32,000 nucleotides of DNA from Rhodospirillaceae bacterium (GCA_965279655.1 OZ257255.1:2356909-2388908); one strand, 5' to 3'; positions 1,513 through 17,919 are shown, numbered from the stretch's first letter. Notes: generated from the sequence alone by a model not told the origin. Program-made: numbers and translations.

Positions 1513-2190
1513 CTACACGCCGCATTTCACGCAGCGGAACTCCACTACCGAGCCATCCTTCTTGTTGGTGAATTTCATCTGCACCCACCGGCCACCGGCA
1601 TACCATACCTCGGTGTTGCTGAGGTCGCCGAGATAGCGGTAGCGCTGCGCCTCCATGGGTATGCCGGCAACAATCAACCTGTCGCGACCGAGCTTTGTCG
1701 CGGGTCCCTCGCGCAATACACCGTCGAGTGTGTCGAGCGTGTCGCGTGCGAGCGGCTGATCCGGATTCCAGTGAGTCGTCGGCACGATGCTCCCCGGCGC
1801 GGTCACCGGTCCCTTCTTGCCGCCTGTCACTTTGATCGTGTCGCCTTCGCGGCGCGCCGAAACGGAACTCCTCTTACCGTCGTCGTTCACCTTTGAATCG
1901 ATTGCCCACAACGTCCCGTTCGACCACATCTCCACGGCTTCGTAGTGGTAGCGGTAGCCAACGATGAACGCGACTTTCACCGCCAGGTCCATCCGGCTTT
2001 CGATCACCAAGGCGGTATCACGCCGGGTGAAGGTTGCCTGATATTGGCCGATGCGCGCGCCCTTGCGGTACACATCGAACTGGAGCGAATCACCGTACAT
2101 CGCGAACGGATCGTGGGGCGTGTGCCGCGGCGCCTCCTGCGCGCGCGCGCTCCCTACGAGCAAGACCAGAAACAGCATAAAAAGGCGCAT
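1513..2190 (-). CDS. Secreted beta-rich protein, DUF6134-like
   Basis: Signal peptide MRLFMLFLVLLVGSARAQE. The motifs YRKGARIGQY...GYRYHYEAVEMWSNGTLWAIDSKVNDDGK resemble the DUF6134 family as I recall it. Its stop abuts the DUF3833 stop (convergent pair). Confidence 0.6.
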   Translation of the reverse strand: MRLFMLFLVLLVGSARAQEAPRHTPHDPFAMYGDSLQFDVYRKGARIGQYQATFTRRDTALVIESRMDLAVKVAFIVGYRYHYEAVEMWSNGTLWAIDSKVNDDGKRSSVSARREGDTIKVTGGKKGPVTAPGSIVPTTHWNPDQPLARDTLDTLDGVLREGPATKLGRDRLIVAGIPMEAQRYRYLGDLSNTEVWYAGGRWVQMKFTNKKDGSVVEFRCVKCGV

Positions 2191-2242
2191 GGAACCTCAA
2201 TGGCCGCGCGACAAGCTGACGGCGAGAATACGCTAGACTAAA

Positions 2243-2821
2243 GTGATGGCCATGACGAACTCCCCCGACTCGCGTATGAACGCTGTTCTCTCGTTTTGGT
2301 TCGGTCCCAATCCCGCGAGCGCACGTCCGCAGTGGTTCAAGACCGATCCGGCGTTCGACCGCGCAATCACGCAGTTGTTCGGGACCGACTACGACCAAGC
2401 GCGCGCGGGCAAGCGCGCGGTCTGGGAGCAATCGGCGCGGGGTGCGCTCGCGCTGACCATCTTGCTCGACCAATTCCCGCGCAACTTGTTCCGCAAGACC
2501 GCTCGCGCCTTCGAAAGCGATGCCCTGGCGCTGCGCGTCGCCAAGCAGGCGCTCGCCGTCGGCTTCGACCAGAAGGTAACGCCGGTCCAACGGATGTTCT
2601 TCTATCTGCCGTTCGAACACAGCGAGAGTATGGCGGACCAGGAGTGCAGCCTGGAACTCATCAAGGTGTTGAACGATGCGCGCTCATTGGATTACGCCGA
2701 GCAACATGCGGCAATCATTCGGCGATTCGGCCGCTTCCCACACCGCAACGCCGTGCTCGGGCGGCAAAGCACGCCTGAGGAAATCGCATACCTAAAGGCG
2801 ACCCCACCCTCCTTCGGGTGA
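2243..2821 (+). CDS. DUF924 family protein
   Basis: The N-terminal LSFWFGP...RPQWFKTDPAFDRAI pattern is typical of DUF924. The start is ambiguous: GTG 2243, ATG 2246 or ATG 2252. Confidence 0.75.
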   Translation: MMAMTNSPDSRMNAVLSFWFGPNPASARPQWFKTDPAFDRAITQLFGTDYDQARAGKRAVWEQSARGALALTILLDQFPRNLFRKTARAFESDALALRVAKQALAVGFDQKVTPVQRMFFYLPFEHSESMADQECSLELIKVLNDARSLDYAEQHAAIIRRFGRFPHRNAVLGRQSTPEEIAYLKATPPSFG

Positions 2822-2858
2822 GTATACTGCGCACGCTCATCCACAAGAGGAGTCCGCC

Positions 2859-3251
2859 ATGCCCGCCCCGCCCGTTGTCGCCGCGATCATGCGTGGCCTC
2901 TCCGGCCGTTGCCCGGCTTGCGGCGAAGGCCGGATGTTCCGCAAATTCTTAAAAGTCGCGGATGCCTGCGAGGCCTGCGGCGAGGAACTCCACCATCACC
3001 GCGCCGACGACTTCCCCGCCTATATCGTGGTCTCGATCGTGGGCCACATCATGTTGTCGGCGGCCTACTGGGTCGAAGTCACCCTCGCGCCGGCGATCTG
3101 GATTCAGATGGTTTCGTTGCTGCCGGCCGGCGCGATCATGACGCTCGCACTGATCCAGCCGATCAAGGGTGCCGTGGTCGCGATCCAGTGGCACATCGGG
3201 ATGGACGGCTTCGGCGCCGCCAAAGCCGTCCGCGTGCAGGTTCGCTCCTAA
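2859..3251 (+). CDS. DUF983 domain membrane protein (copy 1)
   Basis: Zinc-ribbon-like CPACGEG...CEACGEE is followed by two hydrophobic spans. A GAGGAG Shine-Dalgarno lies about 7 nt upstream of ATG 2859. Confidence 0.85.
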   Translation: MPAPPVVAAIMRGLSGRCPACGEGRMFRKFLKVADACEACGEELHHHRADDFPAYIVVSIVGHIMLSAAYWVEVTLAPAIWIQMVSLLPAGAIMTLALIQPIKGAVVAIQWHIGMDGFGAAKAVRVQVRS

Positions 3252-3818
3252 CTACTTCTGCGGGGCGCGATTGGCGGCCCGCGCCGCGGCATCGTTGGAT
3301 GCACCGACCGCGGTCCCCGTTGGGGCCGTGAGCGTGTAGCCCATCTGGCGCATCATCCCGAGCACGTCATAGTCGCCCCACTGCTCGACCATCATGCCGT
3401 CCTTGTAGCGGTAGATGTCGATGCCGGTGAACTTCATCGACTTGCCGGTCGGCGGTTGGCCCATGTAGGCGCCGTCGTTCGTCGCCTCGATCGTTTGGCT
3501 GGCGATGAGCATGTCGTCTTTGCACACGATCAGGTCGTTGGTGAGCTTGCGCTTGGGAAACGCCTTCGCGGTCGCGGCCACGAAGGACTTGGTCGCCTCC
3601 GGTCCATGCGGCGCGGTTGGCGGCGCGTAGCGGCTCTTGAATTCCGGTGAGACGTACTTGTCGACCAGGCTCAGGTCGCGGCCGTTGAACACCTTGTCGA
3701 ACATTTCGAGGTAGGCCTTGAGATTGGCCTCGTTGCCCTCGCAATGGATCTCGGTCGCGGCGGCGGCAGGCGCGGCGAAAAGCAGCGCGGCGGCGAAAAG
3801 CGTCAGGCGTGCGGTCAT
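3252..3818 (-). CDS. Secreted SnoaL-like (ester cyclase / NTF2-fold) protein
   Basis: ATG at 3818 is in frame with track ORF 3252..4262 and is preceded by GGAGGA. Signal peptide MTARLTLFAAALLFAAPAAAA. The core NLKAYLEMFDKVFNGRDLSLVDKYVSPEF...FTGIDIYRYKDGMMVEQWG is typical of SnoaL-type polyketide-cyclase-like proteins. The longer track ORF would overlap ctaB and is rejected. Confidence 0.7.
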   Translation of the reverse strand: MTARLTLFAAALLFAAPAAAATEIHCEGNEANLKAYLEMFDKVFNGRDLSLVDKYVSPEFKSRYAPPTAPHGPEATKSFVAATAKAFPKRKLTNDLIVCKDDMLIASQTIEATNDGAYMGQPPTGKSMKFTGIDIYRYKDGMMVEQWGDYDVLGMMRQMGYTLTAPTGTAVGASNDAAARAANRAPQK

Positions 3819-3898
3819 GGTGTCCTCCCCGAATGGAGAGGACAGTTTGCCCGGGTCCGTTGGTTGGATTCCAGCGCCCCGCGAAGGGTGACCGCTGG

Positions 3899-4780
3899 TT
3901 AGAGGCCGAAGGTCGCCAGGGAGATGTGGCGGTCGAGCACGATCGCCAGGAACACGCCCGCCAGGTACTGCATGGAGAACAGGAAGTTCCGCCGCGCATT
4001 GTCGCGGCTCGGGTCCTGCACCAGTTGCCAGTTCAGCCACAGGAAGCGAACGCCGAAGGCCGTAGAGATCACGCCGTAGAGCAGGCCGAGTTGGCTGAAC
4101 ATCACTGGCAACAGCGCCGAGATCACGAGCAGCGCGGTATTCCCGAAAATCCACCAGGCGCAGGCCTTGTCGCCCGCGACCACCGGCAGCATGGGCACGC
4201 CGGCGGCGGCGTAGTCGTCTTTGATGAGGATGGCGAGCGACCAGAAGTGCGACGGCGTCCACAGGAACAAGGTGATCGCCATCAGCATCGGCAGAAGCCA
4301 GATGTGCGGATCGACCGCGGCGCCACCGCCGAGCACGGCGAAGCTGCCCGCCGCGCCGCCGATGATGATGTTGGTCCAGTGCCGGCGCTTCAGCCAGACG
4401 GTGTAGACGATGCCGTAGACAAACGCGCCGAGGAACAAGTGCGTCGCAACCAGCCAGTTGAAGGCCAGCACCGCGATGACGCAGCCAGACAGCAGCAACG
4501 CTCCGGCGAACCAGAGCACATGGTACGGATCGCCGAGCGTGCCGGCGGCGAGCGGGCGTTTGGCCGTGCGCGGGCTCAACCTGTCGAGGTCGCGATCGTA
4601 GAACTGGTTGAAGACCGCCGAACCGGACGACCCAAGCAGCATCGCCAGGAAGAGCAGCGCCAACTTGCGCGGGTCAACGTCGGGCGCAATCGCCGCATAG
4701 CCGGCCATCGCCGAAACGGCGATGAGGAAGCCGATCCGCAGCTTCATCAGCGTCAAATAGCTTCGGATTTGCAATGTCAT
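3899..4780 (-). CDS. ctaB: Protoheme IX farnesyltransferase (heme o synthase)
   Basis: UbiA-family polytopic protein with the Asp-rich motifs NQFYDRDLD and DDYAAAGVPMLPV. Its start ATG overlaps the stop of the upstream gene (ATGA), indicating translational coupling. Confidence 0.9.
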   Translation of the reverse strand: MTLQIRSYLTLMKLRIGFLIAVSAMAGYAAIAPDVDPRKLALLFLAMLLGSSGSAVFNQFYDRDLDRLSPRTAKRPLAAGTLGDPYHVLWFAGALLLSGCVIAVLAFNWLVATHLFLGAFVYGIVYTVWLKRRHWTNIIIGGAAGSFAVLGGGAAVDPHIWLLPMLMAITLFLWTPSHFWSLAILIKDDYAAAGVPMLPVVAGDKACAWWIFGNTALLVISALLPVMFSQLGLLYGVISTAFGVRFLWLNWQLVQDPSRDNARRNFLFSMQYLAGVFLAIVLDRHISLATFGL

Positions 4781-6252
4781 AAGGGCCTGGCACCGATTTC
4801 AGGCGCTGCAGTAGCATCGCGGGTGGGCTTCGCCAACAGCATTTTCCCCGCAAGCACGATGAAGATGACCCCACCAATGACGGCGACGCCACCGCCTCCC
4901 GCATTGAGAATCAAAGAGATTTTCTTCTCAACACTGTCGAGTCCCTGGGCCGCGCCGGCGGTCTTTCGGGCCACCCCGAACACCCCGGCGATGAAAAGGC
5001 CGACGGTTTGCACCAGGGTCCCGAGGCCGAGGGTCAGGTACATGGTGGTGCGCAGCCGCTTGCGCTCGATACGCTTATCCAGCACCGGCAGGAACACGCC
5101 GAAGGTGAGCGCCATGAATAGCAGCGTCACGGCGATCAGCATGGCGTGGTAGTGCGCCGGCGTACGGGTATCGACCGAACTCTCGAAGAATCCAATTACG
5201 CCGCCCCAGGCGAACAGCACCAGCGCCGCCGCCATGCCGCGCACTTCCGGCGCCCCGTCCCAGATGTCGTGCCAGCGCCGGCCGAGAAGCATCACCACGC
5301 TGAGCACGACCACGGCCGTCGGCCACGGCAGCACGAACCGATACATATCGGTGAACATGAGACGCTGGGCGGGATCGCCGCTTTGATAAGTCAGATAGAG
5401 CAGTGGGCCCGCCGCGGCCCCCGCGAGCAACAGCAGGACCATCGCCTTGAATACGCGTCCCGACAGGGGCGTCTCGCCGAAGGTGACGCGGCTCAGCAGA
5501 TAGAGTGCGCACAGGAACAGCGTGGTGTTCGCAAATTGCAGTACGTGGCCGCCACCCCACATCAGGAAGTCGTTGAGCCCCTCCGCATCGAACCCGTCTG
5601 GACGGCGTAGCCACGCGAGTGCGAAGCAGACCAGAGCAATGAGATGGATCACGCCGGCGCAGGCGACACCGAATGTCGTCGGTTCGGCGCGCCGCGACCG
5701 CCACAAAGCGGCCAATAGGCGCAGGATCGGTAACGCCAAGCTCAATCCCAACGCGCCCAGACCCGCGTAGTAGATCGGATCGGTCATGACAGGGATGTAG
5801 TTATTGGGTGAGGCGCTTCCGCGGCCGAGAACCAACGGAATCAGAAGGAGGAGAAAGCTGGTCGCCGCACCGCCCAGAGCGAGGCGCCCGCTCACCAGGC
5901 CACCGAGAGACATTGGCCCTGCCGCGGCATGCAAGCGACCGGTGACCAGAACGGTTAGCGCCCCCTGCACGGCGACGTACCACACCACGAATGCGAACGT
6001 GACGTGCGCGACGAGACCACGCTGGAAGAACGCTTGATTGAGGAATGGCAACGCTTTCTCGACACCGGGGATGCGCGCGACAGCGAGCACCAGCGCGAGC
6101 AGACCCGCCAGACCGAGGGCTGCGACCGAGATCGCCGACCAGCCTTGCAACTCAAGACGGAGATCGTCCGTCAGTTTTCCCGCGAAGTGTCCGTCGACCG
6201 CCACATCGACGGGTGCCGGCATGGCGCGAGCGAAGATAACCTTATCGTCCAT
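4777..6252 (-). CDS. 12-TM heme-copper-oxidase subunit I-like membrane protein; the CuB His-His pair was not found
   Basis: About 12 hydrophobic spans. His in span 2 (GLVAHVTFAFVVWY), MWGGGHVLQF in span 6 and PAHYHAMLIAV in span 10 parallel [10 protein letters not shown] and [10 protein letters not shown] of the genuine CtaD in this window. There is no HH equivalent of CtaD VWAHHMY. I am confident it is a CDS; the family assignment is tentative. Confidence 0.6.
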   Translation of the reverse strand: MDDKVIFARAMPAPVDVAVDGHFAGKLTDDLRLELQGWSAISVAALGLAGLLALVLAVARIPGVEKALPFLNQAFFQRGLVAHVTFAFVVWYVAVQGALTVLVTGRLHAAAGPMSLGGLVSGRLALGGAATSFLLLLIPLVLGRGSASPNNYIPVMTDPIYYAGLGALGLSLALPILRLLAALWRSRRAEPTTFGVACAGVIHLIALVCFALAWLRRPDGFDAEGLNDFLMWGGGHVLQFANTTLFLCALYLLSRVTFGETPLSGRVFKAMVLLLLAGAAAGPLLYLTYQSGDPAQRLMFTDMYRFVLPWPTAVVVLSVVMLLGRRWHDIWDGAPEVRGMAAALVLFAWGGVIGFFESSVDTRTPAHYHAMLIAVTLLFMALTFGVFLPVLDKRIERKRLRTTMYLTLGLGTLVQTVGLFIAGVFGVARKTAGAAQGLDSVEKKISLILNAGGGGVAVIGGVIFIVLAGKMLLAKPTRDATAAPEIGARPL

Positions 6253-6282
6253 TGATCTCGCGGCGGGTCATGGCGTCGATGC

Positions 6283-6747
6283 TCAACCTGGCGGCGCGTA
6301 CACGTGATAGAGAGTGGCATAGATCAACACCCCGGTCACCGCGACATACAGCCAGATGGGAAACGTCCAGCGGGCGATGGCGCGATGGCGCGCAAACACT
6401 GGCGCGGGTGCCGATGCGCCTCCGTTGCGCCAAGCCTTGATCGCGCGCCACGCGGTCACCGCGATCATCGGCGTCGCCACCGCGGCCAGGATCACGTGAC
6501 TGATGAGCATCGCGTAGTAGACCGGCACAACCCATCCGGTGCCGGGGAACACGAACACCGGCGCGGTGAAGTGGTAGATGAGATAACAGACGAGGAAGAC
6601 CGCGGAGACGCTCAACGCGGCGATCATCACCCGGCGATGGGCCTCGCGGCGGCCGGCCCGGATCAACGCATAAGCGGTGATCAGCAGCACCACGGACGTG
6701 GAATTGAGTGCCGCATTCACATGCGGCAGGACGGCCGTTAACTCCAT
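6283..6747 (-). CDS. DUF420 family membrane protein (CtaM-like)
   Basis: Four hydrophobic spans. The N-terminal LPHVNAALNSTSVVLLITAYALIRAGRREAHRRVM and the later YLIYHF motif are typical of DUF420, the family of Bacillus CtaM. Confidence 0.85.
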   Translation of the reverse strand: MELTAVLPHVNAALNSTSVVLLITAYALIRAGRREAHRRVMIAALSVSAVFLVCYLIYHFTAPVFVFPGTGWVVPVYYAMLISHVILAAVATPMIAVTAWRAIKAWRNGGASAPAPVFARHRAIARWTFPIWLYVAVTGVLIYATLYHVYAPPG

Positions 6748-6784
6748 GTGGCGAAAAGCCCCTAAAATGCGCAGTGAAGGCCGG

Positions 6785-6907
6785 TTACGGGCCCTGCAGC
6801 GCGGTCTTGACGATAATGCTGACGAACATGAACGCAGAGATACCGAGCAAAATCAGGCCGAACTTGCGCAAGCGCGGGTCGCCGGGCTGAGGCGTGTTGT
6901 TCGGCAT
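6785..6907 (-). CDS. 40-aa single-TM membrane peptide
   Basis: Product MPNNTPQPGDPRLRKFGLILLGISAFMFVSIIVKTALQGP. ATG at 6907 has GGAGG 8 nt upstream. It is the first gene of the DUF420 operon. The track start at 6973 has no SD, so the shorter form is preferred. Confidence 0.5.
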   Translation of the reverse strand: MPNNTPQPGDPRLRKFGLILLGISAFMFVSIIVKTALQGP

Positions 6908-7186
6908 TTCTCGGCCTCCGAGTACGTAAGGAAGGGGGCTTGTAGCGCACGCAGGTCCTGGGGAAAACCCCAAGCGCCATTGGCGGCCAAAACCGCCGTG
7001 GTTTCAAGGCGCTCGCGCCTTTACGCGTAACCCGCCTTGGGCTAGTCTCCGCCGCAACCCGCAAGCGTCGCTCGCGGGGCTCTGGCGGGGGCGCCGGATA
7101 CCCGGCAAAAATATTGAAAAGCCTGGGAAAATTCAGTTGAACCCATGGGTCCGCCCGCTTAAACGGGGGGCGCTCATGGGGTTGCA

Positions 7187-8065
7187 ATGGAGACAGATGT
7201 GAACCGTCTGACACTGGCCGTTCTAGGCGTATTTATCCCTCTTTCGACGGCTGTGGCGCAGACCGCTGACCAGTTGCCGCAACCCTCGTTCCCGCATCGA
7301 TGGCAGCTCAACCTCCAAACGCCGGCCAGCCCGGTGATGGAGAAGATGGTCGATTTTCACAATCTGCTGTTGTGGATCTGCACGATCATCTCGGTGTTCG
7401 TCCTGGCCCTGCTGCTGTACGTGGCCATGAAGTTCAACGAGCGCACCAACCCGGTGCCCTCCAAAACCACCCACAACACGCTGCTGGAAGTGATCTGGAC
7501 CGGTATCCCGGTGCTGATCCTCGCGGCGGTCGCGATCCCGTCCTACCGGCTGCTGTTCTTCGCCGACCGGATCGAGAACCCGGAAATGACCCTGAAAATC
7601 ACGGGCAACCAGTGGTACTGGACTTATGAGTACCCGGACACCGAGGTCTCCTTCGACTCCATCGCCCGTCCCGACGACAAGATCGACGTGAGCAAGGGCG
7701 AGCACCGCATGCTGGAAGTCGACAACGAGGTTTACCTGCCGATCGACACCTCGGTTCGGCTGCTTTTCAACGCCACCGACGTGATCCACGCCTGGACCAT
7801 CCCCGCGTTCGGCGTGAAGAACGACGCGATGCCTGGCCGCACCAACGAGAGCTGGGTGCGCGCCACCAAGATCGGCAAGTTCTACGGGCAGTGCTCGGAA
7901 CTCTGCGGCGTCGACCATTCGTTCATGCCGATTGTCGTGAACGTGGTCAGCAAAGAGCGTTATCAGGCCTGGGTGGCCTCAAAGAAGCAGAGCGCGTCGG
8001 CTGAGCCGACCACCAAAGCGGCGTCGGCAGAACCGGCGACCCAGCTCGCTTCCGCGCAAAATTAA
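7187..8065 (+). CDS. ctaC: Cytochrome c oxidase subunit II (aa3-type, CuA)
   Basis: Signal peptide plus 2 TM, QWYWTYEYPD, and the CuA site HAW...CSELCGVDHSFMP. There is no C-terminal cytochrome c domain; the Ala/Ser/Pro-rich tail contains a repeated SAEP(T/A)T. Confidence 0.95.
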   Translation: METDVNRLTLAVLGVFIPLSTAVAQTADQLPQPSFPHRWQLNLQTPASPVMEKMVDFHNLLLWICTIISVFVLALLLYVAMKFNERTNPVPSKTTHNTLLEVIWTGIPVLILAAVAIPSYRLLFFADRIENPEMTLKITGNQWYWTYEYPDTEVSFDSIARPDDKIDVSKGEHRMLEVDNEVYLPIDTSVRLLFNATDVIHAWTIPAFGVKNDAMPGRTNESWVRATKIGKFYGQCSELCGVDHSFMPIVVNVVSKERYQAWVASKKQSASAEPTTKAASAEPATQLASAQN

Positions 8066-9718
<1,653 letters not shown>

Positions 9719-9739
9719 CCGCCAGCTTTCGGACTGAGG

Positions 9740-10318
9740 ATGGCCGACGAGAAGACATTGGAGCGCCGCAAGGCCACGACCGCGATCATCGCCGTAACGG
9801 TGGTCGCCGGCATGGTCGGGTTCGCGTTCGCGTCGGCGCCACTCTACCGAATGGTGTGTAAGACTTTAGGCATCGGCGGCACCACGCAGGTCGCTGCCCA
9901 AGCACCAAGCTCGATTTCGCAAGAGCCGGTGACGATACGGTTCGACTCCAATATCGACCCGCAGCTGCCGTGGGAGTTCAAGCCCGAGCAGAAGGCCGTC
10001 ACGGTGAAGTTCGGCGAGACCGCGACCGTCAAGTACCGCGCGAAGAACATTTCCGACCATACGATCGTGGGCACCGCTACCTTCAACGTCACACCGGAAA
10101 AGGTGGGGATTTACTTCAACAAGCTCGCCTGTTTCTGCTTCCAGGAAACCACCCTGAAGCCGGGCGAAGAAGTCGAACTACCGGTGACGTTCTTCGTCGA
10201 TCCCGATTTGCTGCAAGACGAATACGCCAACGAAGTGCGTACGCTGACACTGTCCTACACGTTCTTTCCGTCGCTCAATGCCGTCGCCAGCGCGCCGGCC
10301 ACGACGGTTTCCAAATAG
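9740..10318 (+). CDS. ctaG: Cytochrome c oxidase assembly protein CtaG/Cox11 (CuB chaperone)
   Basis: N-terminal TM, then PLYRMVCKTLGIGGT and the copper-binding CFCF motif (LACFCFQE). Confidence 0.9.
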   Translation: MADEKTLERRKATTAIIAVTVVAGMVGFAFASAPLYRMVCKTLGIGGTTQVAAQAPSSISQEPVTIRFDSNIDPQLPWEFKPEQKAVTVKFGETATVKYRAKNISDHTIVGTATFNVTPEKVGIYFNKLACFCFQETTLKPGEEVELPVTFFVDPDLLQDEYANEVRTLTLSYTFFPSLNAVASAPATTVSK

Positions 10319-10342
10319 CCAAAGCATAGAGGACCTCATTCC

Positions 10343-11182
10343 ATGAGCGCCCACGCCAAACATCCCTATCACATGGTCAATCCGAGCCCGTGGCCCGCGC
10401 TGGGCTCGTTAGCGGGTCTCGTCACCGCCGTGGGCGCGGTGATGTACATGCACAAGCAGCCGATCCTCGGCATCACAGGCGTCGCGACGATCCTGCCGGG
10501 CCTGTCCCTGCTGGTCCTCACCATGATCTTGTGGTGGCGCGATGTGATCAAAGAGTCGGTGAAGGATCACGCGCACACCCACGAAGTGGCCCATGGCCTG
10601 CGCATGGGCATGGTGTTGTTCATCGCCTCGGAAGTGATGTTCTTCTTCGCCTTCTTCTGGGCGTTCTTCCACAACGCGCTGGGCTTCTCGACCGCCACCC
10701 TGCAGTGGCCGCCCGAGGGCATCGCCGTTCTGAATGCCTGGGACATCCCCTTCGTCAACACGGTGATCCTGCTCACCTCCGGCGGCACGGTCACCCGCGC
10801 GCACATCTACGTCGAGGAAGGCAACAACAAGCTCGCCGCTCGCTGGCTTTTCATCACAGCCGCCTTGGGCGCGATCTTCCTGAGCGCGCAGGTGTACGAA
10901 TACGTCCACGCCACCTACAAGCTGTCGGACGGCATCTATCCGTCGACCTTCTATCTGGCGACCGGCTTCCACGGCTTCCACGTGTTCGTCGGCACGGTGT
11001 TCCTGACCGTCTGCGGCTTCCGCGCGGCGAAGGGCCACTTCACAGCGCACAAGCACATCGGCTTCCAGGCAGCCGCCTGGTACTGGCACTTCGTCGACGT
11101 GGTGTGGCTGTTCCTGTTCGTCTGGGTCTACTGGATCCTGGGCCTGCCGATCCGTCATTTCGCGCCAGCCGTCGGCGGCTGA
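10343..11182 (+). CDS. ctaE: Cytochrome c oxidase subunit III
   Basis: HPYHMVNPSPWP N-terminus, 7 TM, and FHGFHV and WYWHFVDVVWLFLF motifs. Confidence 0.95.
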   Translation: MSAHAKHPYHMVNPSPWPALGSLAGLVTAVGAVMYMHKQPILGITGVATILPGLSLLVLTMILWWRDVIKESVKDHAHTHEVAHGLRMGMVLFIASEVMFFFAFFWAFFHNALGFSTATLQWPPEGIAVLNAWDIPFVNTVILLTSGGTVTRAHIYVEEGNNKLAARWLFITAALGAIFLSAQVYEYVHATYKLSDGIYPSTFYLATGFHGFHVFVGTVFLTVCGFRAAKGHFTAHKHIGFQAAAWYWHFVDVVWLFLFVWVYWILGLPIRHFAPAVGG

Positions 11183-11190
11183 TCAACAAA

Positions 11191-11221
11191 GGGCCGGGGG
11201 AAACCCCGGCCCTTCTGCTTT
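11191..11221 (+). terminator. Hairpin with GAAA tetraloop and T-rich tail after ctaE (possible partial terminator)
   Basis: GGGCCGGGG-GAAA-CCCCGGCCC is a perfect 9-bp stem followed by TTCTGCTTT. The DUF983 gene starts only 16 nt later, so termination is probably incomplete. Confidence 0.5.
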
Positions 11222-11236
11222 GTGGGATATGCCAAC

Positions 11237-11602
11237 ATGACCAAACCCGCCGCCCCGTTGATCTCCACCGCTCTGCGGGGCCGCTGCCCTCGCTGCGGCG
11301 AAGGCTCACTGTTCGAGGGCTATATCAAGGTCGCGCCCAAGTGCCCGGTGTGCGGTCTGGGTTTCGGCAACAACGACACGGGCGACGGGCCGGCCTTCTT
11401 CGTGATGATGCCCCTGTGCATCCTGGTGGCTGTCAGCGCCCTGGTATTCGACCAAATGGTCGCGCCGCCGATGTGGGTGCACCTGCTGGTATGGCCGACC
11501 TTCATCGCGCTGGCGGTCGGTTTCTCACTACGGCCCGTGAAGGCGATCATGGTCGGGCTGCAGTACCGCTATCGCGACGTGGAGCGGCAAACCCCAGAGT
11601 AG
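11237..11602 (+). CDS. DUF983 domain membrane protein (copy 2)
   Basis: CPRCGEGSLF...CPVCGLGF zinc-ribbon-like pair followed by two hydrophobic spans. ATG 11237 is preferred over GTG 11222. Confidence 0.8.
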   Translation: MTKPAAPLISTALRGRCPRCGEGSLFEGYIKVAPKCPVCGLGFGNNDTGDGPAFFVMMPLCILVAVSALVFDQMVAPPMWVHLLVWPTFIALAVGFSLRPVKAIMVGLQYRYRDVERQTPE

Positions 11603-11616
11603 CGGGAGCTAGCCGT

Positions 11617-11862
11617 TCAGGCCCCGCGGCGAATTGAGAATCGAACATCTTTCTTGTCGTCGACCGTGTCCAGCACCTGATGCCCATGCGCCGCGCAGAA
11701 TGCCGGCACATCCCGCAACGCCACCCGGTCCGTCGCCAGCAGATGTACGACCGTGCCCGGCGCGAGGTCCGTCAATGCCTTGCGCAGTTTGAGCACCGGT
11801 AGCGGACAGGCCAATCCGCGCGCGTCGATCGCCGGGACGTCGGTCTCGTGATTGTTTGCCAT
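11617..11862 (-). CDS. TusA/SirA-family sulfur carrier protein
   Basis: About 80 aa, with the diagnostic DARGLACPLPVLKLRKAL (CPxP) motif. An alternative start lies at 11871. Confidence 0.8.
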   Translation of the reverse strand: MANNHETDVPAIDARGLACPLPVLKLRKALTDLAPGTVVHLLATDRVALRDVPAFCAAHGHQVLDTVDDKKDVRFSIRRGA

Positions 11863-11906
11863 GCCGGACATATATAACGTGGCGCATCAACCTGTGGGAA
11901 TTCTAC

Positions 11907-12890
11907 GTGAACACTGTCCTCGGGTTCGCCCTGGCCGGCCTCGCCCTCGGTGCCGCGATCGGCGCCATCGCGCAGGTGACGGCCTTCTGCTCCGTGGGCG
12001 CCGTGGCGGACATCGTGCTCGCCAAGGATTGGCGGCGCATGCGCAGCTGGCTGATGGCCGCCGGCGTGGCCCTGATCGGAACCCAAGCCTTGAGCGCCCT
12101 CGGTTGGGCAGACCTGACCGGAACGCCCTATGGCCTTCCCATGGGAACCTGGCCCTTTGTTCTGCTCGGCAGCATCGCCTTCGGCTACGGCATGGCGCTC
12201 GCTGGCGGCTGCGTGCAGCGGGCCCTGGTGCGGGTCGGCAGCGGCTCGGTGAAGTCCGCCGCCACGCTGTTCCTGGTCGCGATCACCGCCGCGGCAACGC
12301 TTGTGGTGGCGCCACGCGCGGTGCCGGTGTCGGTCACCCTGCCCCATGCCATGGCGCTGGCGATCAGCCTTGGCCTCGGCGGCGCGCTGATCGTGTTCGC
12401 CGTGGCGGACCCATGGTTCCGGAAATCGCCTGAACACCTGTGGGGCGGCGCCGCCATCGGCGCGGCCATTGCGCTGGCCTGGGTGTTCGCCGACGGCCAC
12501 CGGGGGTTCAATCTACTCATGGACCTTGGCGCGGCGAGCGCCATCCCCCTGGGTTTGTCCGAGCCGTTGCCGGTGTTCGGCCTCGCGGCTCTGGGCGGGA
12601 TGGTGATCGGCGCGGCGATCAGCGCCGCCGTGCGCGGCGACCTCTCCCGTGATCGCTTCGTCGACGGCGAGGACGTTAAACGCCACGTCATCGGCGGCGT
12701 CCTGATGGGGCTCGGCGGCGCGCTCGCCTACGGCTGTACTTTCGGCCAGGGGCTGGCGGGCCTCTCGACCCTGTCCATGAGCTCGGTGATCGCCATCGCG
12801 GGCATGGGGATCGGCTGCCTCTGGGGCATCCGGGTGCTGGAAGCCGGCACCGCCTGGGGCGGCCTCAAGCTGATGTTTGGAACTCGCTAG
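11907..12890 (+). CDS. YeeE/YedE family inner-membrane sulfur compound (thiosulfate-type) transporter
   Basis: Polytopic protein with three Cys-containing motifs spaced as in YeeE (AFCSVGA, LAGGCVQRA, LAYGCTFGQG). GTG 11907 is chosen because ATG 11856 would overlap the divergent tusA-like start. Confidence 0.75.
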   Translation: MNTVLGFALAGLALGAAIGAIAQVTAFCSVGAVADIVLAKDWRRMRSWLMAAGVALIGTQALSALGWADLTGTPYGLPMGTWPFVLLGSIAFGYGMALAGGCVQRALVRVGSGSVKSAATLFLVAITAAATLVVAPRAVPVSVTLPHAMALAISLGLGGALIVFAVADPWFRKSPEHLWGGAAIGAAIALAWVFADGHRGFNLLMDLGAASAIPLGLSEPLPVFGLAALGGMVIGAAISAAVRGDLSRDRFVDGEDVKRHVIGGVLMGLGGALAYGCTFGQGLAGLSTLSMSSVIAIAGMGIGCLWGIRVLEAGTAWGGLKLMFGTR

Positions 12891-13330
12891 AGCTTCCCGA
12901 TCATGGTCAGCACGTTGCCCGCCGTGTCGCGGAAATGGGCAGCCCCACCCCCGGCGGCCTGGGGCTGCGGTGGCGCGAGGAACGTGACACCCATGGCGGA
13001 CAGACGACCGTAGGTCGCGGCCAGATCAGCCACCACGAAACTGAGGCCCGTGAAGCGGCCGACCATGTCCGCATGCGCCGGGTGCCCATGCGGCAGGCCC
13101 TCGACCGTGAGCTGCGCCACGCCGGTGTCGAACACGGCGGCGTTGCCCGCCTGCTTGAGGAGCGTCAGCCCGATCAGGTCCCGATAGAACAGCACCGCCT
13201 GTTCGAGATCGCCGCAATAGATGCGGGCCGCCTGAAGCCGCAAGGGCGGCGCGGGATGATGGTGGTGATGCCCATGGGCGTGGTCATGGTCGTGCCCGTG
13301 GTCATGCTCGTGATCGTCGTGCGGTGCCAT
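12887..13330 (-). CDS. VOC (glyoxalase/bleomycin-resistance/dioxygenase fold) protein with a His/Asp-rich N-terminal tail
   Basis: The core IYCGDLEQAVLFYRDLIGLTL...VVADLAATYGRLSAMGVTFL...FRDTAGNVL is VOC-like. The first ~25 residues are MAPHDDHEHDHGHDHDHAHGHHHHH. Its stop overlaps the yeeE stop in a shared CTAG. Confidence 0.7.
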   Translation of the reverse strand: MAPHDDHEHDHGHDHDHAHGHHHHHPAPPLRLQAARIYCGDLEQAVLFYRDLIGLTLLKQAGNAAVFDTGVAQLTVEGLPHGHPAHADMVGRFTGLSFVVADLAATYGRLSAMGVTFLAPPQPQAAGGGAAHFRDTAGNVLTMIGKL

Positions 13331-13413
13331 GCCCGGAGTGTGCCGGGCTGATTTGCAGGGGACAAGGGTTCCGGCCTAATCTTCTCGCCACGCAATCACA
13401 TGAGGACGTCGCG

Positions 13414-13749
13414 ATGCCGATGCCGCCGGAACAGGTGTTTTACGTCTCCCCGGAGCAGATCAACGCCTGGCGCGATGAGGACAACGCGGTCATCGTGGAC
13501 GTACGGGAAGACAACGAGTGGGCCGACTCCCACATCCCCGGCGCGATCTTGATGCCGCTGTCCACCTTCGATCCGGCCAAGATCCCCAATCCCGGCGGCA
13601 AGCACCTGGTCTTTCACTGCCGGAGCGGCCGGCGCTGCGGCATGGCCGCGGAGAAGGCCGTCGATGCGGGCTACAAAGGCGTCATTGAACGCATGGAAGG
13701 CGGCTTCCTCGCCTGGCAGGCCGCCGGCTACGACCAGGAACCCGGCTAG
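13414..13749 (+). CDS. Single-domain rhodanese (sulfurtransferase)
   Basis: ATG 13414 has a GAGGA SD. The motifs VIVDVREDNEWADSHIPGA and the active-site loop HCRSGRRC are present. The upstream part of track ORF 13324..13749 is rejected. Confidence 0.85.
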   Translation: MPMPPEQVFYVSPEQINAWRDEDNAVIVDVREDNEWADSHIPGAILMPLSTFDPAKIPNPGGKHLVFHCRSGRRCGMAAEKAVDAGYKGVIERMEGGFLAWQAAGYDQEPG

Positions 13750-13758
13750 AGGGCTCAT

Positions 13759-14265
13759 ATGGCGCCAGCGGAAACCGAGGCTGGGATCGGTCGCGAGGAA
13801 AAGCGGGTCTTCCTGCTGGTTGTCGACGAGACCGAGGAACTGGGTTCCGCCATCCGCTACGCCTGCAATCGTGCCCGCAGCACCGGTGGCCGGCTCGCCC
13901 TGCTTTACGTCTATCAGCTCGACACCGAGTTCCAGCACTTCAGCTCGGTTGGACGTCTGATGGAAAAAGAGGCCGAGGCCGAAGGCGAAGCCATCCTCAA
14001 ACGTCATGCCCTGGATATCGCCCGGGAATCGGGGCGCGTGCCCGACATGTTCGTCCGTCGCGGCGCGCGGCGAGATGAACTGTTCAAGTTGGTCAAAGAC
14101 CATCCGGAGATGTCGATTCTCGTCCTGGCCGCCGCACCGGGCGCCAAGCCCGGCCCACTGGTCGAGGCCGTGACAGGAAAATTTGCCGGCAAGATCGGAA
14201 TTCCCGTCACCGTCGTACCTGGCGACTTGACGCCACCCGAGATTGACCGTTTGACTGCGGTGTGA
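13759..14265 (+). CDS. Universal stress protein (UspA family)
   Basis: VFLLVVDETEELGSAIRYA...RLALLYV and a C-terminal ...ILVLAA...G...KIGIPVTVVP pattern typical of the USP alpha/beta fold. Confidence 0.75.
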   Translation: MAPAETEAGIGREEKRVFLLVVDETEELGSAIRYACNRARSTGGRLALLYVYQLDTEFQHFSSVGRLMEKEAEAEGEAILKRHALDIARESGRVPDMFVRRGARRDELFKLVKDHPEMSILVLAAAPGAKPGPLVEAVTGKFAGKIGIPVTVVPGDLTPPEIDRLTAV

Positions 14266-14338
14266 CCGCAGGGACCAACCTCGTCGCAATCCCGTCGAAG
14301 ACCCCGCGCAGCTTTGCCTGCGGTCGGAGGCGCGCGCC

Positions 14339-17188
14339 ATGACCTTCGAGGATCCACACGAGCCGGACGGCGTGGACACATCACCCGTCGTCGCGGACGA
14401 GGTGAAGACCACAACCTGCTACATGTGCGCCTGCCGCTGCGGCATCCGCGTCTTCGTCAAAGACGGCAAGATTCGCTACATCCAGGGCAACCGGGATCAC
14501 CCGGTGAACAAGGGCGTGCTGTGCGGCAAGGGAGCGGCCGGCATCATGCAGCACAACTCCCCCGCCCGCTTGCGCAAGCCCCTCAAGCGCGTTGGCGAAC
14601 GCGGCCGCGGTGAATTCGTCGAGATCGAATGGGACGAGGCGCTCAAGATCGCTACCGATTGGCTGGGGCACATCCGCCGCACGGACCCCAAGAAACTCGC
14701 CTTCTTCACCGGCCGCGACCAAAGCCAGTCCCTGACGGGCTGGTGGGCGGCCATGTTCGGAACGCCCAACTACGCGGCCCATGGCGGGTTCTGTTCGGTC
14801 AACATGGCCGCGGCGGGCCTCTACACCATCGGCGGTTCGTTCTGGGAATTCGGCGAGCCGGATTGGGAACACACCAAGTACTTCATGATGTTCGGCGTCG
14901 CCGAGGACCATGATTCCAATCCGATCAAGATCGGGCTCGGCAAGCTCAAGGGCCGCGGGGCGAAGTTCATCTCGGTCAATCCCGCCAAGACCGGCTATTC
15001 GGCCATCGCCGACGAGTGGATCGGTATCCGCCCCGGCACGGACGGCCTGTTCGTGATGGCACTGATCCATGAGCTGCTGCGCGCCGGGCAGGTCGATCTC
15101 GAATATCTCGTGCGCTACACCAATGCGCCGTGGTTGGTGATACAGACGCCGGACACGGCGGATGACGGATTGATTGCGCGCGATGGCACCGGCGCGCCGC
15201 TGTGCTGGGATCGCACAAGCAACACGGCTGCGTCCGCCTTGCGCGCGGACGTCACGCCGATGATGCATGGCAGTTTCACTGTCGATGGCAAGACCTGCGT
15301 GCCCGCGTTCCAACTGCTGGCGGATCGCTACGCCGACACAAAGTATGCACCCGACGCCATCGCCGAGACCTGCGGCATCCCCGCCGCCACCATCAAGCGC
15401 ATCGCGGCGGAACTGGCCCACGTCGCATTCAAAGAGACCATTGAGATCCCGGTGCCCTGGACCGATTGGGCGGGCCGCCGCCACGAGAGCATGATCGGCC
15501 GGCCCGTGGCGATGCATGCCATGCGCGGCATCTCCGCTCACTCCAACGGGTTCCACACCTGCCGCGCCTTGCACGTGTTGCAGATGCTGCTGGGCAGCGT
15601 CGATGTGCCGGGCGGCTTCCGCTACAAGCCGCCGTTTCCCAAGCCGGTGCCGCCGGGCCCGAAGCCCGCCGGAAAGGCGGGCGCGAAACCGGACACGCCC
15701 ATGCCGGGCCTGCCGCTCGGGTTCGTGACATCGCCGGACGATCTGCTGCTCGATCCGGAAGGCCGCGCGATCCGCATCGACAAGGCCTACACCTGGGACT
15801 TCCCCATGGCGGCACACGGCGCCCTGCACATGGTGTTGCAGAACGCCGCCGCCGGCGATCCCTACCGTATAGACACCTTGTTCCTCTATATGGCGAACCT
15901 CGCCTGGAATTCGTCGATGAGCGCGACGGCGGCAATCGAAGCGCTGACAGCCAAGGACGCAGACGGAGCCTACAAGATTCCGCATTTCATCTATGTCGAC
16001 GCCTACGCCTCCGAGACCGTGGCCTATGCGGATCTGGTATTGCCGGACACGACCTATCTCGAACGTTGGGACTGCATCTCGCTGCTGGATCGCCCGATCT
16101 CCGATGCGGACGGCGCGTGCGACGCCATACGCCAGCCGGTCGTGGAGCCCGATCGCGATGTGCGCGCTTTCCAGTCCGTGTTGCTCGACCTCGGCGCGCG
16201 GCTGCGCCTTCCCGGCATGATCACCTATGACGGACGGCCCGCGTATCCCGGCGGCTTCGCGGACTACATGGTCAATCACCAGCGCGCGCAAGGGCTCGGC
16301 CCTCTCGCCGGATGGCGCGGCTATGAAGGCGGAGAAGCAGGACGCGGCGCGCCGAACGCTTGGCAACTCGAAAGCTACATCGCGAACGGCTGCTTCTGGC
16401 GCGGCGAAATCCCCGCCGGCGCGCGCTATTTCAAGATGGCCAATGCCGGCTATCTCACCTGGGCGACCCATATGGGATTCATCGCCGGCCCCGAACAGAT
16501 CGTGCTGCAACTCTACAGCGAACCCATGCAGCGCTTCCGCAATGCGGCGCGCGGCCATGGCGCGATGCAGCCGCCGGAAAGCCATCGCGCACGCGTCGAG
16601 GCGGCGTTCGATCCTCTGCCGGTGTGGTATCCACCTTTCGAGGAAGCGGCGATCGATCGCGATGAATTTCCGCTCCATGCGCTGACCCAACGGCCCATGC
16701 AGCACTATCATTCATGGGGATCGCAGAACGCGTGGCTGCGCCAGATCACAGCCGCCAACCGCCTGTTCGTGCATCGCGCGACAGCGGCGAAACTCGGCAT
16801 CGCCGATGACGATTGGGTCTGGGTGATCAGCAGCGCCGGTCGCGTCAAAGGCCAGGTGCGGTTGGTGGAAGGTGTGAACCCGGACACGGTCTGGACGTGG
16901 AACGCTATCGGTAAGCGCAAAGGCGCCTGGGCGCTGAAGCCCGATGCGCCGGAGGCGAACGAGGGCTTCCTGCTCAATCATGCGATTTCCGAATGGCTGC
17001 CGGGCGGCGATCGCCGCCCGAACTGCGACCCGGTGACCGGCCAGGCTGCATGGTTCGATCTGCGCGTGCGCATCGAAAAAGCCGAGGCCGGTGCCTGGCC
17101 GCAGTTCGACGCCGCCGCATCGCCGCCCGGCATTGCGCCGGGGCCGGAAGTGCTGCGTTACGGCGCGGACTTCAAGGTGCGGCCATGA
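14339..17188 (+). CDS. soeA: Mo-bisPGD oxidoreductase catalytic subunit without a Tat signal; SoeA-like (sulfite dehydrogenase, quinone)
   Basis: 949 aa. N-terminal FS0 motif C-x2-C-x3-C-x27-C (CYMCACRCG...VLCGKG). No twin-arginine leader (MTFEDPHEPDGVDTSP...). It is followed by overlapping FeS and NrfD-type genes. The CDS is certain; the soeA name is an inference from architecture and sulfur-gene context. Confidence 0.7.
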   Translation: MTFEDPHEPDGVDTSPVVADEVKTTTCYMCACRCGIRVFVKDGKIRYIQGNRDHPVNKGVLCGKGAAGIMQHNSPARLRKPLKRVGERGRGEFVEIEWDEALKIATDWLGHIRRTDPKKLAFFTGRDQSQSLTGWWAAMFGTPNYAAHGGFCSVNMAAAGLYTIGGSFWEFGEPDWEHTKYFMMFGVAEDHDSNPIKIGLGKLKGRGAKFISVNPAKTGYSAIADEWIGIRPGTDGLFVMALIHELLRAGQVDLEYLVRYTNAPWLVIQTPDTADDGLIARDGTGAPLCWDRTSNTAASALRADVTPMMHGSFTVDGKTCVPAFQLLADRYADTKYAPDAIAETCGIPAATIKRIAAELAHVAFKETIEIPVPWTDWAGRRHESMIGRPVAMHAMRGISAHSNGFHTCRALHVLQMLLGSVDVPGGFRYKPPFPKPVPPGPKPAGKAGAKPDTPMPGLPLGFVTSPDDLLLDPEGRAIRIDKAYTWDFPMAAHGALHMVLQNAAAGDPYRIDTLFLYMANLAWNSSMSATAAIEALTAKDADGAYKIPHFIYVDAYASETVAYADLVLPDTTYLERWDCISLLDRPISDADGACDAIRQPVVEPDRDVRAFQSVLLDLGARLRLPGMITYDGRPAYPGGFADYMVNHQRAQGLGPLAGWRGYEGGEAGRGAPNAWQLESYIANGCFWRGEIPAGARYFKMANAGYLTWATHMGFIAGPEQIVLQLYSEPMQRFRNAARGHGAMQPPESHRARVEAAFDPLPVWYPPFEEAAIDRDEFPLHALTQRPMQHYHSWGSQNAWLRQITAANRLFVHRATAAKLGIADDDWVWVISSAGRVKGQVRLVEGVNPDTVWTWNAIGKRKGAWALKPDAPEANEGFLLNHAISEWLPGGDRRPNCDPVTGQAAWFDLRVRIEKAEAGAWPQFDAAASPPGIAPGPEVLRYGADFKVRP

Positions 17189-17919
17189 CCAGCCTGCCAG
17201 AGAAGACCGATAAGAAGCTCGGCCTCGTCATCGATCTCGATACCTGCGTCGGCTGTCACGCCTGCGTCACCAACTGTAAGGAATGGAACACCGGCGGACA
17301 CATGGCGCCCCTGACCGACCTCAATGCCTACGGCAAGGGCGCGGACGGCGTGTGGTTCAACCGCGTGCATACATACGAGGTGGATGACTCGCCGGGTTGC
17401 AGCCGCACGGTGCATTTCCCGAAGTCGTGCCTGCACTGCGAGACGCCGGCCTGCGTGACCGTGTGCCCCACCGGAGCATCTTACAAACGGACGTCCGATG
17501 GCATCGTGCTCGTAAACGAGGACCTGTGCATCGGCTGCAAGCTGTGTTCCTGGGCCTGCCCCTACGGCGCGCGCGAGTTCGACGTGTTCGAGGGCGTGAT
17601 GAAGAAATGCACGCTCTGCGTCGACCGCATCTACAACACGAACCTCGATGAAGCCGACCGGGCGCCGGCCTGTGTGCTGACCTGCCCCACTGGCGCGCGG
17701 CACTTCGGCGATCTCGGCGATCCGACCTCGGATGTATCGCAGCTGGTCGCCGCGCGCGGCGGCGTCGATCTGATGCCCGAGCTTGGCTACAAGCCGGTGA
17801 ACAAATACCTCCCGCCCCGCCCGCGCAAAACCGCGGCGGCCGACGTGGGCGCGCCGGCGGAATTGATCTCCGCGCCGGGCGGATTCCTCGGCTGGGTCGA
17901 TCGGTTGTTGTCGCGCTAA
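17185..17919 (+). CDS. soeB: 4Fe-4S ferredoxin-type electron-transfer subunit; SoeB-like
   Basis: ATG 17185 overlaps the soeA stop (ATGA). Product MTSLPEKTDKKLGLVIDLDTCVGCHACVTNCKEWN plus further Cys clusters (CLHCETPACVTVCP, CIGCKLCSWACP, CTLCVDR...CVLTCP). The track ORF start at 16993 is rejected. Confidence 0.8.
   Translation: MTSLPEKTDKKLGLVIDLDTCVGCHACVTNCKEWNTGGHMAPLTDLNAYGKGADGVWFNRVHTYEVDDSPGCSRTVHFPKSCLHCETPACVTVCPTGASYKRTSDGIVLVNEDLCIGCKLCSWACPYGAREFDVFEGVMKKCTLCVDRIYNTNLDEADRAPACVLTCPTGARHFGDLGDPTSDVSQLVAARGGVDLMPELGYKPVNKYLPPRPRKTAAADVGAPAELISAPGGFLGWVDRLLSR

Follow-up and report, generated by a model that had tools for sequence, protein, structure and literature searches.

The locus described here encodes a second subunit-I-like protein beside a haem-copper oxidase that has its own. 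The DNA that we analysed, referred to as the window, is a 32,000-nucleotide stretch from a Rhodospirillaceae bacterium (GCA_965279655.1 OZ257255.1:2356909-2388908). Its minus strand carries an operon in which a 491-amino-acid paralogue of haem-copper oxidase subunit I (HCOL) is encoded between a DUF420 protein and the haem o synthase CtaB, divergently from the genes of an aa3 oxidase. We propose, with a probability of about one half, that this operon forms a biogenesis module, which serves the neighbouring haem-copper oxidase and is built round a "shadow" oxidase core. The features of the locus are as follows.

6785–6907, minus strand: pep40, a 40-amino-acid single-pass membrane peptide, first gene of the operon (GGAGG 8 nt 5' of the ATG)
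6283–6747, minus strand: DUF420/CtaM-family four-helix membrane protein, probably subunit-III-like (Pfam PF04238, E = 1e-38)
4777–6252, minus strand: HCOL, 491-amino-acid haem-copper oxidase subunit I paralogue without the CuB site (Pfam COX1, PF00115, 61.5 bits, cut-off 34.8)
3899–4780, minus strand: ctaB, haem o synthase (protohaem IX farnesyltransferase; equivalog TIGR01473, 260.9 bits, cut-off 210.3)
3252–3830, minus strand: SnoaL-like secreted protein, a lineage-specific addition at the 3' end of the operon (PF07366, 96.4 bits, cut-off 28.4, E = 1e-27)
6908–7186, no strand: pep40-coxB divergent intergenic region of 279 bp, presumed shared control region, from reading of the sequence
7187–11602, plus strand: coxB-ctaD-ctaG(Cox11)-ctaE-DUF983, A1-type aa3 oxidase genes, divergent; the presumed client of the minus-strand operon
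7187–8065, plus strand: coxB (NCBIfam CoxB, 194.6 bits, above cut-off)
8084–9718, plus strand: ctaD (NCBIfam CtaD, 713 bits, above cut-off)
9740–10318, plus strand: ctaG/Cox11 (NCBIfam CtaG, 220.9 bits, above cut-off)
10343–11182, plus strand: ctaE (matches subunit III models only, each below its cut-off)
11222–11602, plus strand: DUF983 (Pfam)

All five minus-strand genes of the original prediction, which had been made from the sequence alone, are present and divergent from the aa3 oxidase genes, and the HCOL stop codon and the ctaB start codon share the sequence ATGA, as it had stated. The GC3 of the operon genes is 0.77–0.89 (codon-position GC). Relative to the 92%-identical locus L001, dN/dS is 0.06–0.10 for pep40, DUF420, HCOL (0.064) and CtaB, and CtaD is in the same range. 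The codon-position GC and the low dN/dS indicate that pep40, DUF420, HCOL and ctaB are real genes and not chance open reading frames. A promoter and terminator scan of positions 2800–7300 gave nothing above shuffle expectation, and a sigma-70-like consensus was not found in the 279-bp intergenic region.

HCOL is a subunit I homologue that lacks the copper site

HCOL passes the Pfam COX1 cut-off and matches no NCBIfam model. Its structure, predicted by AlphaFold2 from an alignment of 15 homologues (pLDDT 81, pTM 0.85), contains 12 transmembrane helices. In Foldseek comparisons the model fits subunits I of the A, B and C oxidase families with a probability of 1.0 and TM-scores of 0.62–0.74, and the best match is subunit I of the Thermus ba3 oxidase (TMq 0.74). 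The same protein is the sole match of the HCOL family profile in the PDB (E = 2e-12), whereas a search of the PDB with the single HCOL sequence gave no match. Profile size was similarly important in hhalign: a 15-sequence HCOL profile reached a probability of 0.13%, and larger profiles were required. Residues were therefore compared in an alignment of 146 family representatives with 75 CtaD sequences, and with ba3; the HCOL–CtaD profile–profile alignment has a probability of 98.7% (E = 4e-15). By these profile and model comparisons, HCOL is a true homologue of haem-copper oxidase subunit I with its nearest known relatives in the B family, and the subunit-I-like assignment of the original prediction stands.

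The residues expected to bind haem are retained. His83 aligns with the low-spin haem ligand of helix II, and His367 and His369 with the helix X ligands, the haem a3 and haem a histidine pair; each of the three is present in 145–146 of the 146 representatives. The W232-x-x-G235-H236 segment aligns with the helix VI WxxGH motif, the carrier of the first CuB histidine, R429-K430 with the haem-propionate Arg-Arg pair after helix XI, and D361-T362 with the DT just ahead of helix X. His83, Trp232, Gly235, His236, Gln239, H367-Y368-H369, R429-K430 and D/N361-T362 are invariant or nearly so, and N151-Y152 is also invariant. At least 20 HCOL residues occur in at least 137 of the 146 representatives, although these share only about 27–37% identity with the window protein. 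Glu357 was considered as a catalytic residue and rejected; it is conserved in the alphaproteobacterial clade only and not family-wide.

The catalytic site of an oxygen reductase is not retained. The two helix VII CuB histidines are absent, since HCOL has no histidines opposite WAHH of CtaD or GFHH of ba3, and His236 is the one CuB ligand of three that remains. Nitric oxide reductases and related families have a metal site of three ligands, three histidines or two with an aspartate, to which cNOR and qNOR add a glutamate; HCOL again has one histidine of the three. At the position of the cross-linked tyrosine (H+4), the window protein has Phe240, and the representatives have phenylalanine in 106 and tyrosine in 10 of 146 cases. 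The D-channel glutamate is missing (HPEVY in CtaD opposite HVLQF in HCOL), as is the K-channel lysine (PTGIK opposite PTAVV, where the confidence of the alignment is modest). Without the two CuB histidines, the cross-linking tyrosine and the D- and K-channel residues, HCOL cannot act as a proton-pumping oxygen reductase. Nor is it a complete terminal oxidase, because the CuB site is lost, which agrees with the earlier view of this protein; partners of the usual subunit II or III type are also missing. The minus-strand operon contains no COX2-like gene, and the only COX2 in the window is coxB of the divergent aa3 cluster. The alignments suggest that HCOL descends from a B-family-like subunit I, with a predicted two-haem scaffold kept and the catalytic copper site lost.

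A probable resemblance of DUF420 to the helix bundle of subunit III

DUF420 proteins form the CtaM/YozB family of oxidase maturation factors, typically encoded together with ctaB (PMC4958251). S. aureus and B. subtilis depend on CtaM for the activity of their aa3 and caa3 oxidases, although not for the insertion of haem a (PMC4958251, PMC9145763), and a role in the export or trafficking of copper during oxidase assembly has lately been put forward for it (PMC13344008). The window protein has the characteristics of CtaM: the Pfam match, four helices in its AlphaFold2 model (pLDDT 89), and colocalization with ctaB and an a-type oxidase. Histidines 9, 37, 84 and 121 are each present in 63–65 of 65 HCOL-linked DUF420 sequences.

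The top Foldseek matches of the DUF420 model in the PDB are COX3 chains, those of yeast, mouse, plant, Rhodobacter, Paracoccus, E. coli bo3 and mycobacterial oxidases, with TM-scores of 0.55–0.63 and E values of 0.047 or higher. When 108 DUF420 sequences were compared with 72 CtaE sequences by hhalign, residues 6–129 of DUF420 aligned with residues 134–248 of CtaE over 107 columns, with a probability of 61% and E = 8e-5. Controls with CtaB, CtaG, CoxB and CtaD reached at most 1.6%, the reversed alignment 0.3%, and 20 column shuffles at most 0.6%. DUF420 has no Pfam COX3 match. The resemblance of DUF420 to the C-terminal four-helix bundle of subunit III is a good lead and not proof. If DUF420 is subunit-III-like, the HCOL–DUF420 pair may mimic a subunit I–III core, which suggests that CtaM may be a subunit III relative that docks on subunit-I-like surfaces. 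A published alternative, in which DUF420 is half of a CtaA (PMC8239418), gained no support: the hhalign probability against real CtaA is 0.28%. Neither HCOL nor DUF420 matches PF02628 (COX15-CtaA).

DUF420 and HCOL form the tightest pair of a conserved neighbourhood

The gene neighbourhood was compared in a close sample of 53 loci, in assemblies mostly labelled Rhodospirillaceae and with 50–92% identity, and in a wider sample of 80 further metagenome loci with identity down to 33%; the counts of neighbouring genes given below are over all 138 usable loci. The order pep40-DUF420-HCOL-CtaB, divergent from coxB-ctaD-ctaG-ctaE-DUF983, has no exception among the close loci long enough to show it. 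The operon is kept in all 53 close loci and in most of the 80 distant ones, so that a layout peculiar to the window can be set aside. DUF420 is directly 5' of HCOL in at least 111 of 117 loci, and CtaB is directly 3' of it in 97 of 112. In loci with wide flanks, COX1 is found within 10 kb of HCOL in 83 of 94 cases and Cox11 in 76 of 94. The tightest pair is DUF420-HCOL, not HCOL-CtaB.

Some loci have a second layout, in which coxB-ctaD-ctaG-ctaE-DUF420-HCOL are co-directional and followed by unrelated genes. The canonical alphaproteobacterial operon (subtype b) has the order COX2-COX1-CtaB-CtaG-COX3-DUF983-SURF1-CtaA (10.1101/2023.11.21.568154), and the canonical order is also given in PMC6431628. 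The co-directional DUF420-HCOL pair thus takes the operon-end position of SURF1-CtaA. A ctaB gene between ctaD and ctaG was found neither in the HCOL-linked clusters of the close and wider samples nor in the window, in keeping with the proposal that ctaB had moved from this canonical position (10.1101/2023.11.21.568154, PMC6431628) into the minus-strand operon. SURF1 does not follow DUF983 in any of nine sampled loci, and neither the minus-strand operon nor the whole 32-kb window contains ctaA or surf1. A phmmer search with the CtaA of locus L061 and an approximate B. subtilis CtaA as queries found no CtaA in the flanks of 142 loci or in the window, and no homologue was found across the 94 loci with wide flanks. 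In L061 itself, a locus of another clade, a COX15/CtaA gene and SCO1 are divergent from the adjoining HCOL, and CtaB is on its other side.

Rokubacteria-type loci have the order small open reading frame-COX2 (174 amino acids)-COX1-HCOL-CtaB-SCO1-cytochrome b/Fe-S/FlpD. Their COX1 is ba3-like (E = 3e-40) and has HPSQQ in place of the ba3 tyrosine motif HPINY, in which H+4 is tyrosine. Because the tyrosine is lacking at H+4, this COX1 may be one of the nitric oxide reductase (NOR)-like relatives of the B family. The oxidase partners therefore differ by lineage, an A1-type aa3 oxidase in proteobacteria and a B-family-like oxidase without the tyrosine in Rokubacteria, and because HCOL is constantly linked to an oxidase, whichever family this belongs to, a generic role in maturation is favoured.

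The Rokubacteria-type module is located at 4423–12126 in L054, 7592–15455 in L057 and 7630–15338 in L058. In L062 (142–7049), which belongs to a different clade, the module begins with HCOL, lacks CtaB and lies beside nirS-type haem d1 genes. A protein of 170–190 amino acids without a Pfam match follows the fused cytochrome b/4Fe-4S/FlpD in all four. We found no description of this module of tyrosine-less COX1, HCOL, SCO1 and cytochrome b/FlpD in the papers that we consulted. Seven loci (L001, L009, L012, L024, L026, L030 and L050) come from RH-23may17 and RH-15aug16 assemblies titled "Candidatus Marinimicrobia". Their cox cluster is plainly alphaproteobacterial and their CtaD is 83–96% identical to that of the window, so the label looks wrong.

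HCOL represents a separate and widespread family

A family profile built from alphaproteobacterial and Rokubacterial members was searched against 1.84 billion cluster representatives. It recovered 1700 proteins at E ≤ 1e-3, far too few to include the canonical COX1 proteins, and HCOL is therefore a separate family. The 654 clusters at E ≤ 1e-30 are distributed across several phyla, and the family splits into at least five to six clades. A tblastn search of HCOL against plasmids gave no match. Public annotations name the members "hypothetical", "cytochrome c oxidase subunit 1" or "cbb3-type cytochrome c oxidase subunit I", the last of which is a mislabelling by automatic annotation. Full-text literature searches returned no paper that describes or names the family, which is also not mentioned in PMC9145763, PMC8239418, PMC10411912, PMC6431628 or PMC11214002, and no characterized family that includes the 491-amino-acid protein was found. 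HCOL is an uncharacterized branch of the oxidase superfamily that is widespread, has no copper site and is linked to CtaM and CtaB. An oxidase biogenesis operon based on CtaM and CtaB is of a known kind; HCOL, its central component, is new.

Several family members are fused to other domains. HCOL::CtaB fusions identified with Pfam occur in two separate clades (P0237 and P0274), and P0274 is a single uninterrupted open reading frame of 748 amino acids inside an oxidase operon. HCOL is fused to SCO1 in P0339, to CcmH-like TPR domains in P0327 and P0387, and to a preceding cytochrome b in P0319, which adjoins nirS.

Individual loci and proteins of the family add further detail. L059 (2–3889) encodes a 761-amino-acid protein with an N-terminal cytochrome b (PF00033) and HCOL, and the cytochrome cd1 nitrite reductase NirS directly after it. 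In L144 (1366–6075) an HCOL::SCO1 fusion is followed by DUF423, hemerythrin and a faintly NnrS-like protein, a neighbourhood that suggests a response to NO or O2. The proteins P0270, P0287, P0293 and P0316 (593–661 amino acids) have C-terminal extensions of 130–200 residues without a Pfam match; P0293 and P0316 are below the Pfam COX1 reporting threshold, yet score more than 300 bits with the HCOL family profile.

Peripheral members of the operon

Homologues of pep40 were collected from 50 close loci, and every one ends with FMYVSFIxKTAxxGP followed by the stop codon. The dN/dS of pep40 is 0.088, and the peptide was detected in close relatives only. It matches NF038351, "cytochrome oxidase small assembly protein", weakly (18.3 bits, under the threshold of 27.5), and membership in that family was rejected because just 2 of 15 homologues gave such weak matches.

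The SnoaL-like protein has an N-terminal signal-like segment, and its sequence match indicates a fold family and not a function. The gap between ctaB and its gene is 68 nt and contains no terminator-like site. The gene is present in about half of the close relatives, sometimes in two or three copies, and absent from the distant ones; it is therefore an add-on outside the conserved core. The five-gene operon of the original prediction thus holds in gene content, but its SnoaL gene is not part of the core, and the emphasis placed on the 40-amino-acid peptide is secondary. That prediction had also overlooked the identity of DUF420 with CtaM, its likeness to subunit III, and the closer pairing of HCOL with DUF420 than with CtaB.

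Two DUF983 paralogues, at 2859–3251 and 11222–11602 (both plus strand), flank the entire cox region. They share 28–39% identity with each other in relatives. The first ends exactly at the end of the convergent SnoaL gene, with zero spacer, and this upstream copy is also retained near the operon in L001 and L004. A DUF924 gene and a DUF6134 gene (window 1513–2821) are found again and again in relatives immediately past the SnoaL side of the operon, for example in L001 (11786–13087), L034, L039 and L048.

A proposed role in oxidase biogenesis and its alternatives

The data show which genes are present, the fold and ligand residues of HCOL, and its conservation, synteny and fusions; complex formation, haem binding, and the direction and nature of a cofactor hand-over are inferred from these, as follows. 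HCOL and DUF420/CtaM, with pep40 in this lineage, would form a subunit I–III-like complex. CtaB would pass farnesylated haem directly into HCOL, as suggested by the translational coupling of the two genes and their fusion in some lineages. The HCOL–CtaM complex may hold or redox-condition cofactors, haem o or haem a and possibly copper through CtaM, and would hand them to nascent CtaD. This step would be the one served by SURF1 and related factors in canonical operons. The varied oxidase families next to HCOL, its fusions to assembly factors, its lost catalytic residues and the missing subunit II favour a generic maturation factor over a respiratory enzyme. Of the two functions originally suggested for HCOL, a haem handling or insertion scaffold for the aa3 enzyme is the candidate that fits the evidence best and seems broadly right. 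The case for the other, a minimal haem-only oxidoreductase that would have the 40-amino-acid peptide as a subunit, is weaker; pep40 was detected in close relatives only, and the near-constant partner in this branch of the family is DUF420.

Several points weigh against the biogenesis module. The two haem sites and the invariant Gln239, Tyr368, N151-Y152 and D/N361-T362 suit a working redox enzyme better than a passive carrier. The cytochrome b::HCOL fusion P0319 beside nirS points to an electron supply, as does the cytochrome b/Fe-S/FlpD gene that recurs downstream in L062 and in the Rokubacteria-type clusters. To our knowledge, the CtaM of Bacillus and other Firmicutes works without any HCOL, and canonical alphaproteobacteria and mitochondria, as far as we know, also assemble aa3 oxidases without it; the module is thus not generally required. 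The similarity of DUF420 to COX3 is moderate (Foldseek E ≥ 0.047, hhalign probability 61%). The locus search patterns were biased to the clade of the window, so the percentages mostly describe that clade. The biogenesis role is drawn from comparative sequence and model evidence.

HCOL could instead be a free-standing haem-only oxidoreductase, for example a low-turnover reductase of O2, NO or peroxide, or a cupric reductase, that receives its electrons from quinol or cytochrome b and includes DUF420 and the peptide as subunits; its adjacency to the oxidase would then reflect co-regulation and not assembly. We regard this as possible, though doubtful. Conservation extends to both haem sites and to the geometry of electron transfer, an invariant Tyr368 lies between the haem histidines, and Gln239 and His236 of the distal pocket are invariant. 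The fusion with cytochrome b next to nirS points the same way, as do the cytochrome b/Fe-S/FlpD genes, which in L062 stand beside haem d1 biosynthesis genes. A cupric reductase for oxidase biogenesis is moreover a discussed and unfilled role in Firmicutes (PMC13344008). However, two of the three CuB/FeB ligands, the tyrosine and the proton-channel glutamate and lysine are missing, which leaves no evident proton supply, and the operon provides neither a subunit II nor a cytochrome c as partner. The fusions of HCOL to CtaB, SCO1 and TPR assembly domains, and the oxidases of different families that adjoin it in 83 of 94 loci, also speak for assembly. If HCOL were a decaying, functionless duplicate of an oxidase subunit, the loss of its copper site, tyrosine and proton channels would be explained, but the conservation data already refute this reading, to which we assign next to no probability: its dN/dS is as low as that of CtaD, at least 20 residues are nearly invariant across divergent representatives, the family extends over hundreds of clusters in several phyla, the synteny is conserved, and fusions exist.

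HCOL and DUF420 may also constitute an enzyme that modifies the CtaB product, either a CtaA-independent haem a synthase or a maker of another haem o derivative, in which the high-spin pocket would be the substrate site and the low-spin haem an electron relay. The HCOL gene immediately precedes ctaB, the two proteins are fused in some cases, and CtaA-CtaB fusions exist in other bacteria. The high-spin site of haem-copper oxidases naturally accepts farnesylated haem, the wide flanks of 94 loci and the window are devoid of CtaA homologues, and DUF420-HCOL is found in the SURF1-CtaA operon position (10.1101/2023.11.21.568154). This activity is nevertheless unlikely. In alphaproteobacteria, cox15 usually lies apart from the COX operon (PMC10411912), and the lack of CtaA in the flanks therefore carries little weight. 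A straight replacement of CtaA is improbable because a bona fide COX15/CtaA gene immediately adjoins HCOL in L061, where CtaB and SCO1 are also close by, because every bacterial genome with ctaM in a 2016 survey of 978 genomes also had ctaA (PMC4958251), and because Rokubacteria are listed with type 1.5 CtaA (PMC8239418). The conserved Gln239, Tyr368 and N151-Y152, together with the cytochrome b fusion, leave room for redox chemistry within the biogenesis module, with cupric reduction and haem modification as candidates. In a bolder formulation, which we consider rather improbable, HCOL and CtaM/DUF420 are an unrecognized copper-less mimic of subunits I–III that takes farnesylated haem from CtaB and either converts it, to haem a without CtaA or to a new haem, or loads both haems, and perhaps copper, into nascent subunit I. 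If true, bacteria would have in this mimic the cofactor-insertion device that is missing for haem-copper oxidases, and the function of CtaM would be explained as well.

Other genes in the window

The cox genes are followed by a sulfur-related block (11617–18851), which encodes TusA (minus strand), a YeeE/TsuA-like transporter, a glyoxalase-fold protein, a rhodanese, a Usp protein and a three-subunit molybdoenzyme of the DMSO-reductase family. The molybdoenzyme consists of a 949-amino-acid catalytic subunit, an Fe-S subunit and a DmsC/NrfD-like anchor. The best likeness of the catalytic subunit is to PhsA, below threshold, and the enzyme may be SoeABC-like. The listed start of the Fe-S open reading frame, 16993, is probably too early, as it gives an overlap of about 200 nt with the catalytic gene. 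An ELM1-like protein (PF06258, "mitochondrial fission ELM1", E = 3e-83) is encoded at 22480–23451 (minus strand), is unrelated to the HCOL operon, and adjoins genes for a xylose-isomerase-like TIM barrel protein and a phosphoribosyltransferase.

Comparison with known systems

The ba3 oxidase of Thermus thermophilus (1EHK, 3S8F) is the closest structural relative of HCOL. The two share the 12-helix fold, with the best TM-score of 0.74; ba3 is the only PDB family matched by the HCOL profile (E = 2e-12), and the helix II histidine, helix VI WxxGH, helix X HxH and the basic pair after helix XI align. HCOL differs from ba3 by the absence of the two helix VII CuB histidines, the cross-linking tyrosine and a subunit II/CuA partner, and the identity is 17–20%; for these reasons it is not a member of the B family. 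The eNOR, sNOR, gNOR, bNOR and nNOR families (Murali et al. 2024, PMC11214002) are, like HCOL, divergent lineages related to the B family without the active-site tyrosine. In contrast to HCOL with its one histidine, they keep a three-ligand metal site, of three histidines or two histidines and an aspartate, and subunit II (PMC11214002). With HCOL, the oxidase superfamily gains a branch that is either non-catalytic or catalytic in a different way.

CtaA/Cox15 and SURF1/Shy1 are comparable to DUF420-HCOL in their place in the pathway downstream of CtaB and in operon position. The canonical operon ends with COX3-DUF983-SURF1-CtaA, whereas the HCOL loci end with COX3-(DUF983), to which DUF420-HCOL is appended or from which it diverges. 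The folds are unrelated to that of HCOL: CtaA spans the membrane with eight (or four) helices, and SURF1, a periplasmic protein, has two. One relative of HCOL, in L061, shares its gene cluster with CtaA. The insertion of haem and CuB into bacterial subunit I is poorly understood, and HCOL is a concrete candidate for a cofactor hand-over station.

The 154-amino-acid DUF420 protein of the window resembles CtaM/YozB of B. subtilis and S. aureus, which is likewise encoded beside ctaB and an a-type oxidase (PMC4958251). The role of CtaM is debated, with an initial assignment to haem a followed by the present one to copper trafficking, and a likeness of CtaM to subunit III was not mentioned in the literature that we searched. 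CtaM of Firmicutes acts without HCOL, whereas DUF420 here and in more than 100 other loci is paired with it.

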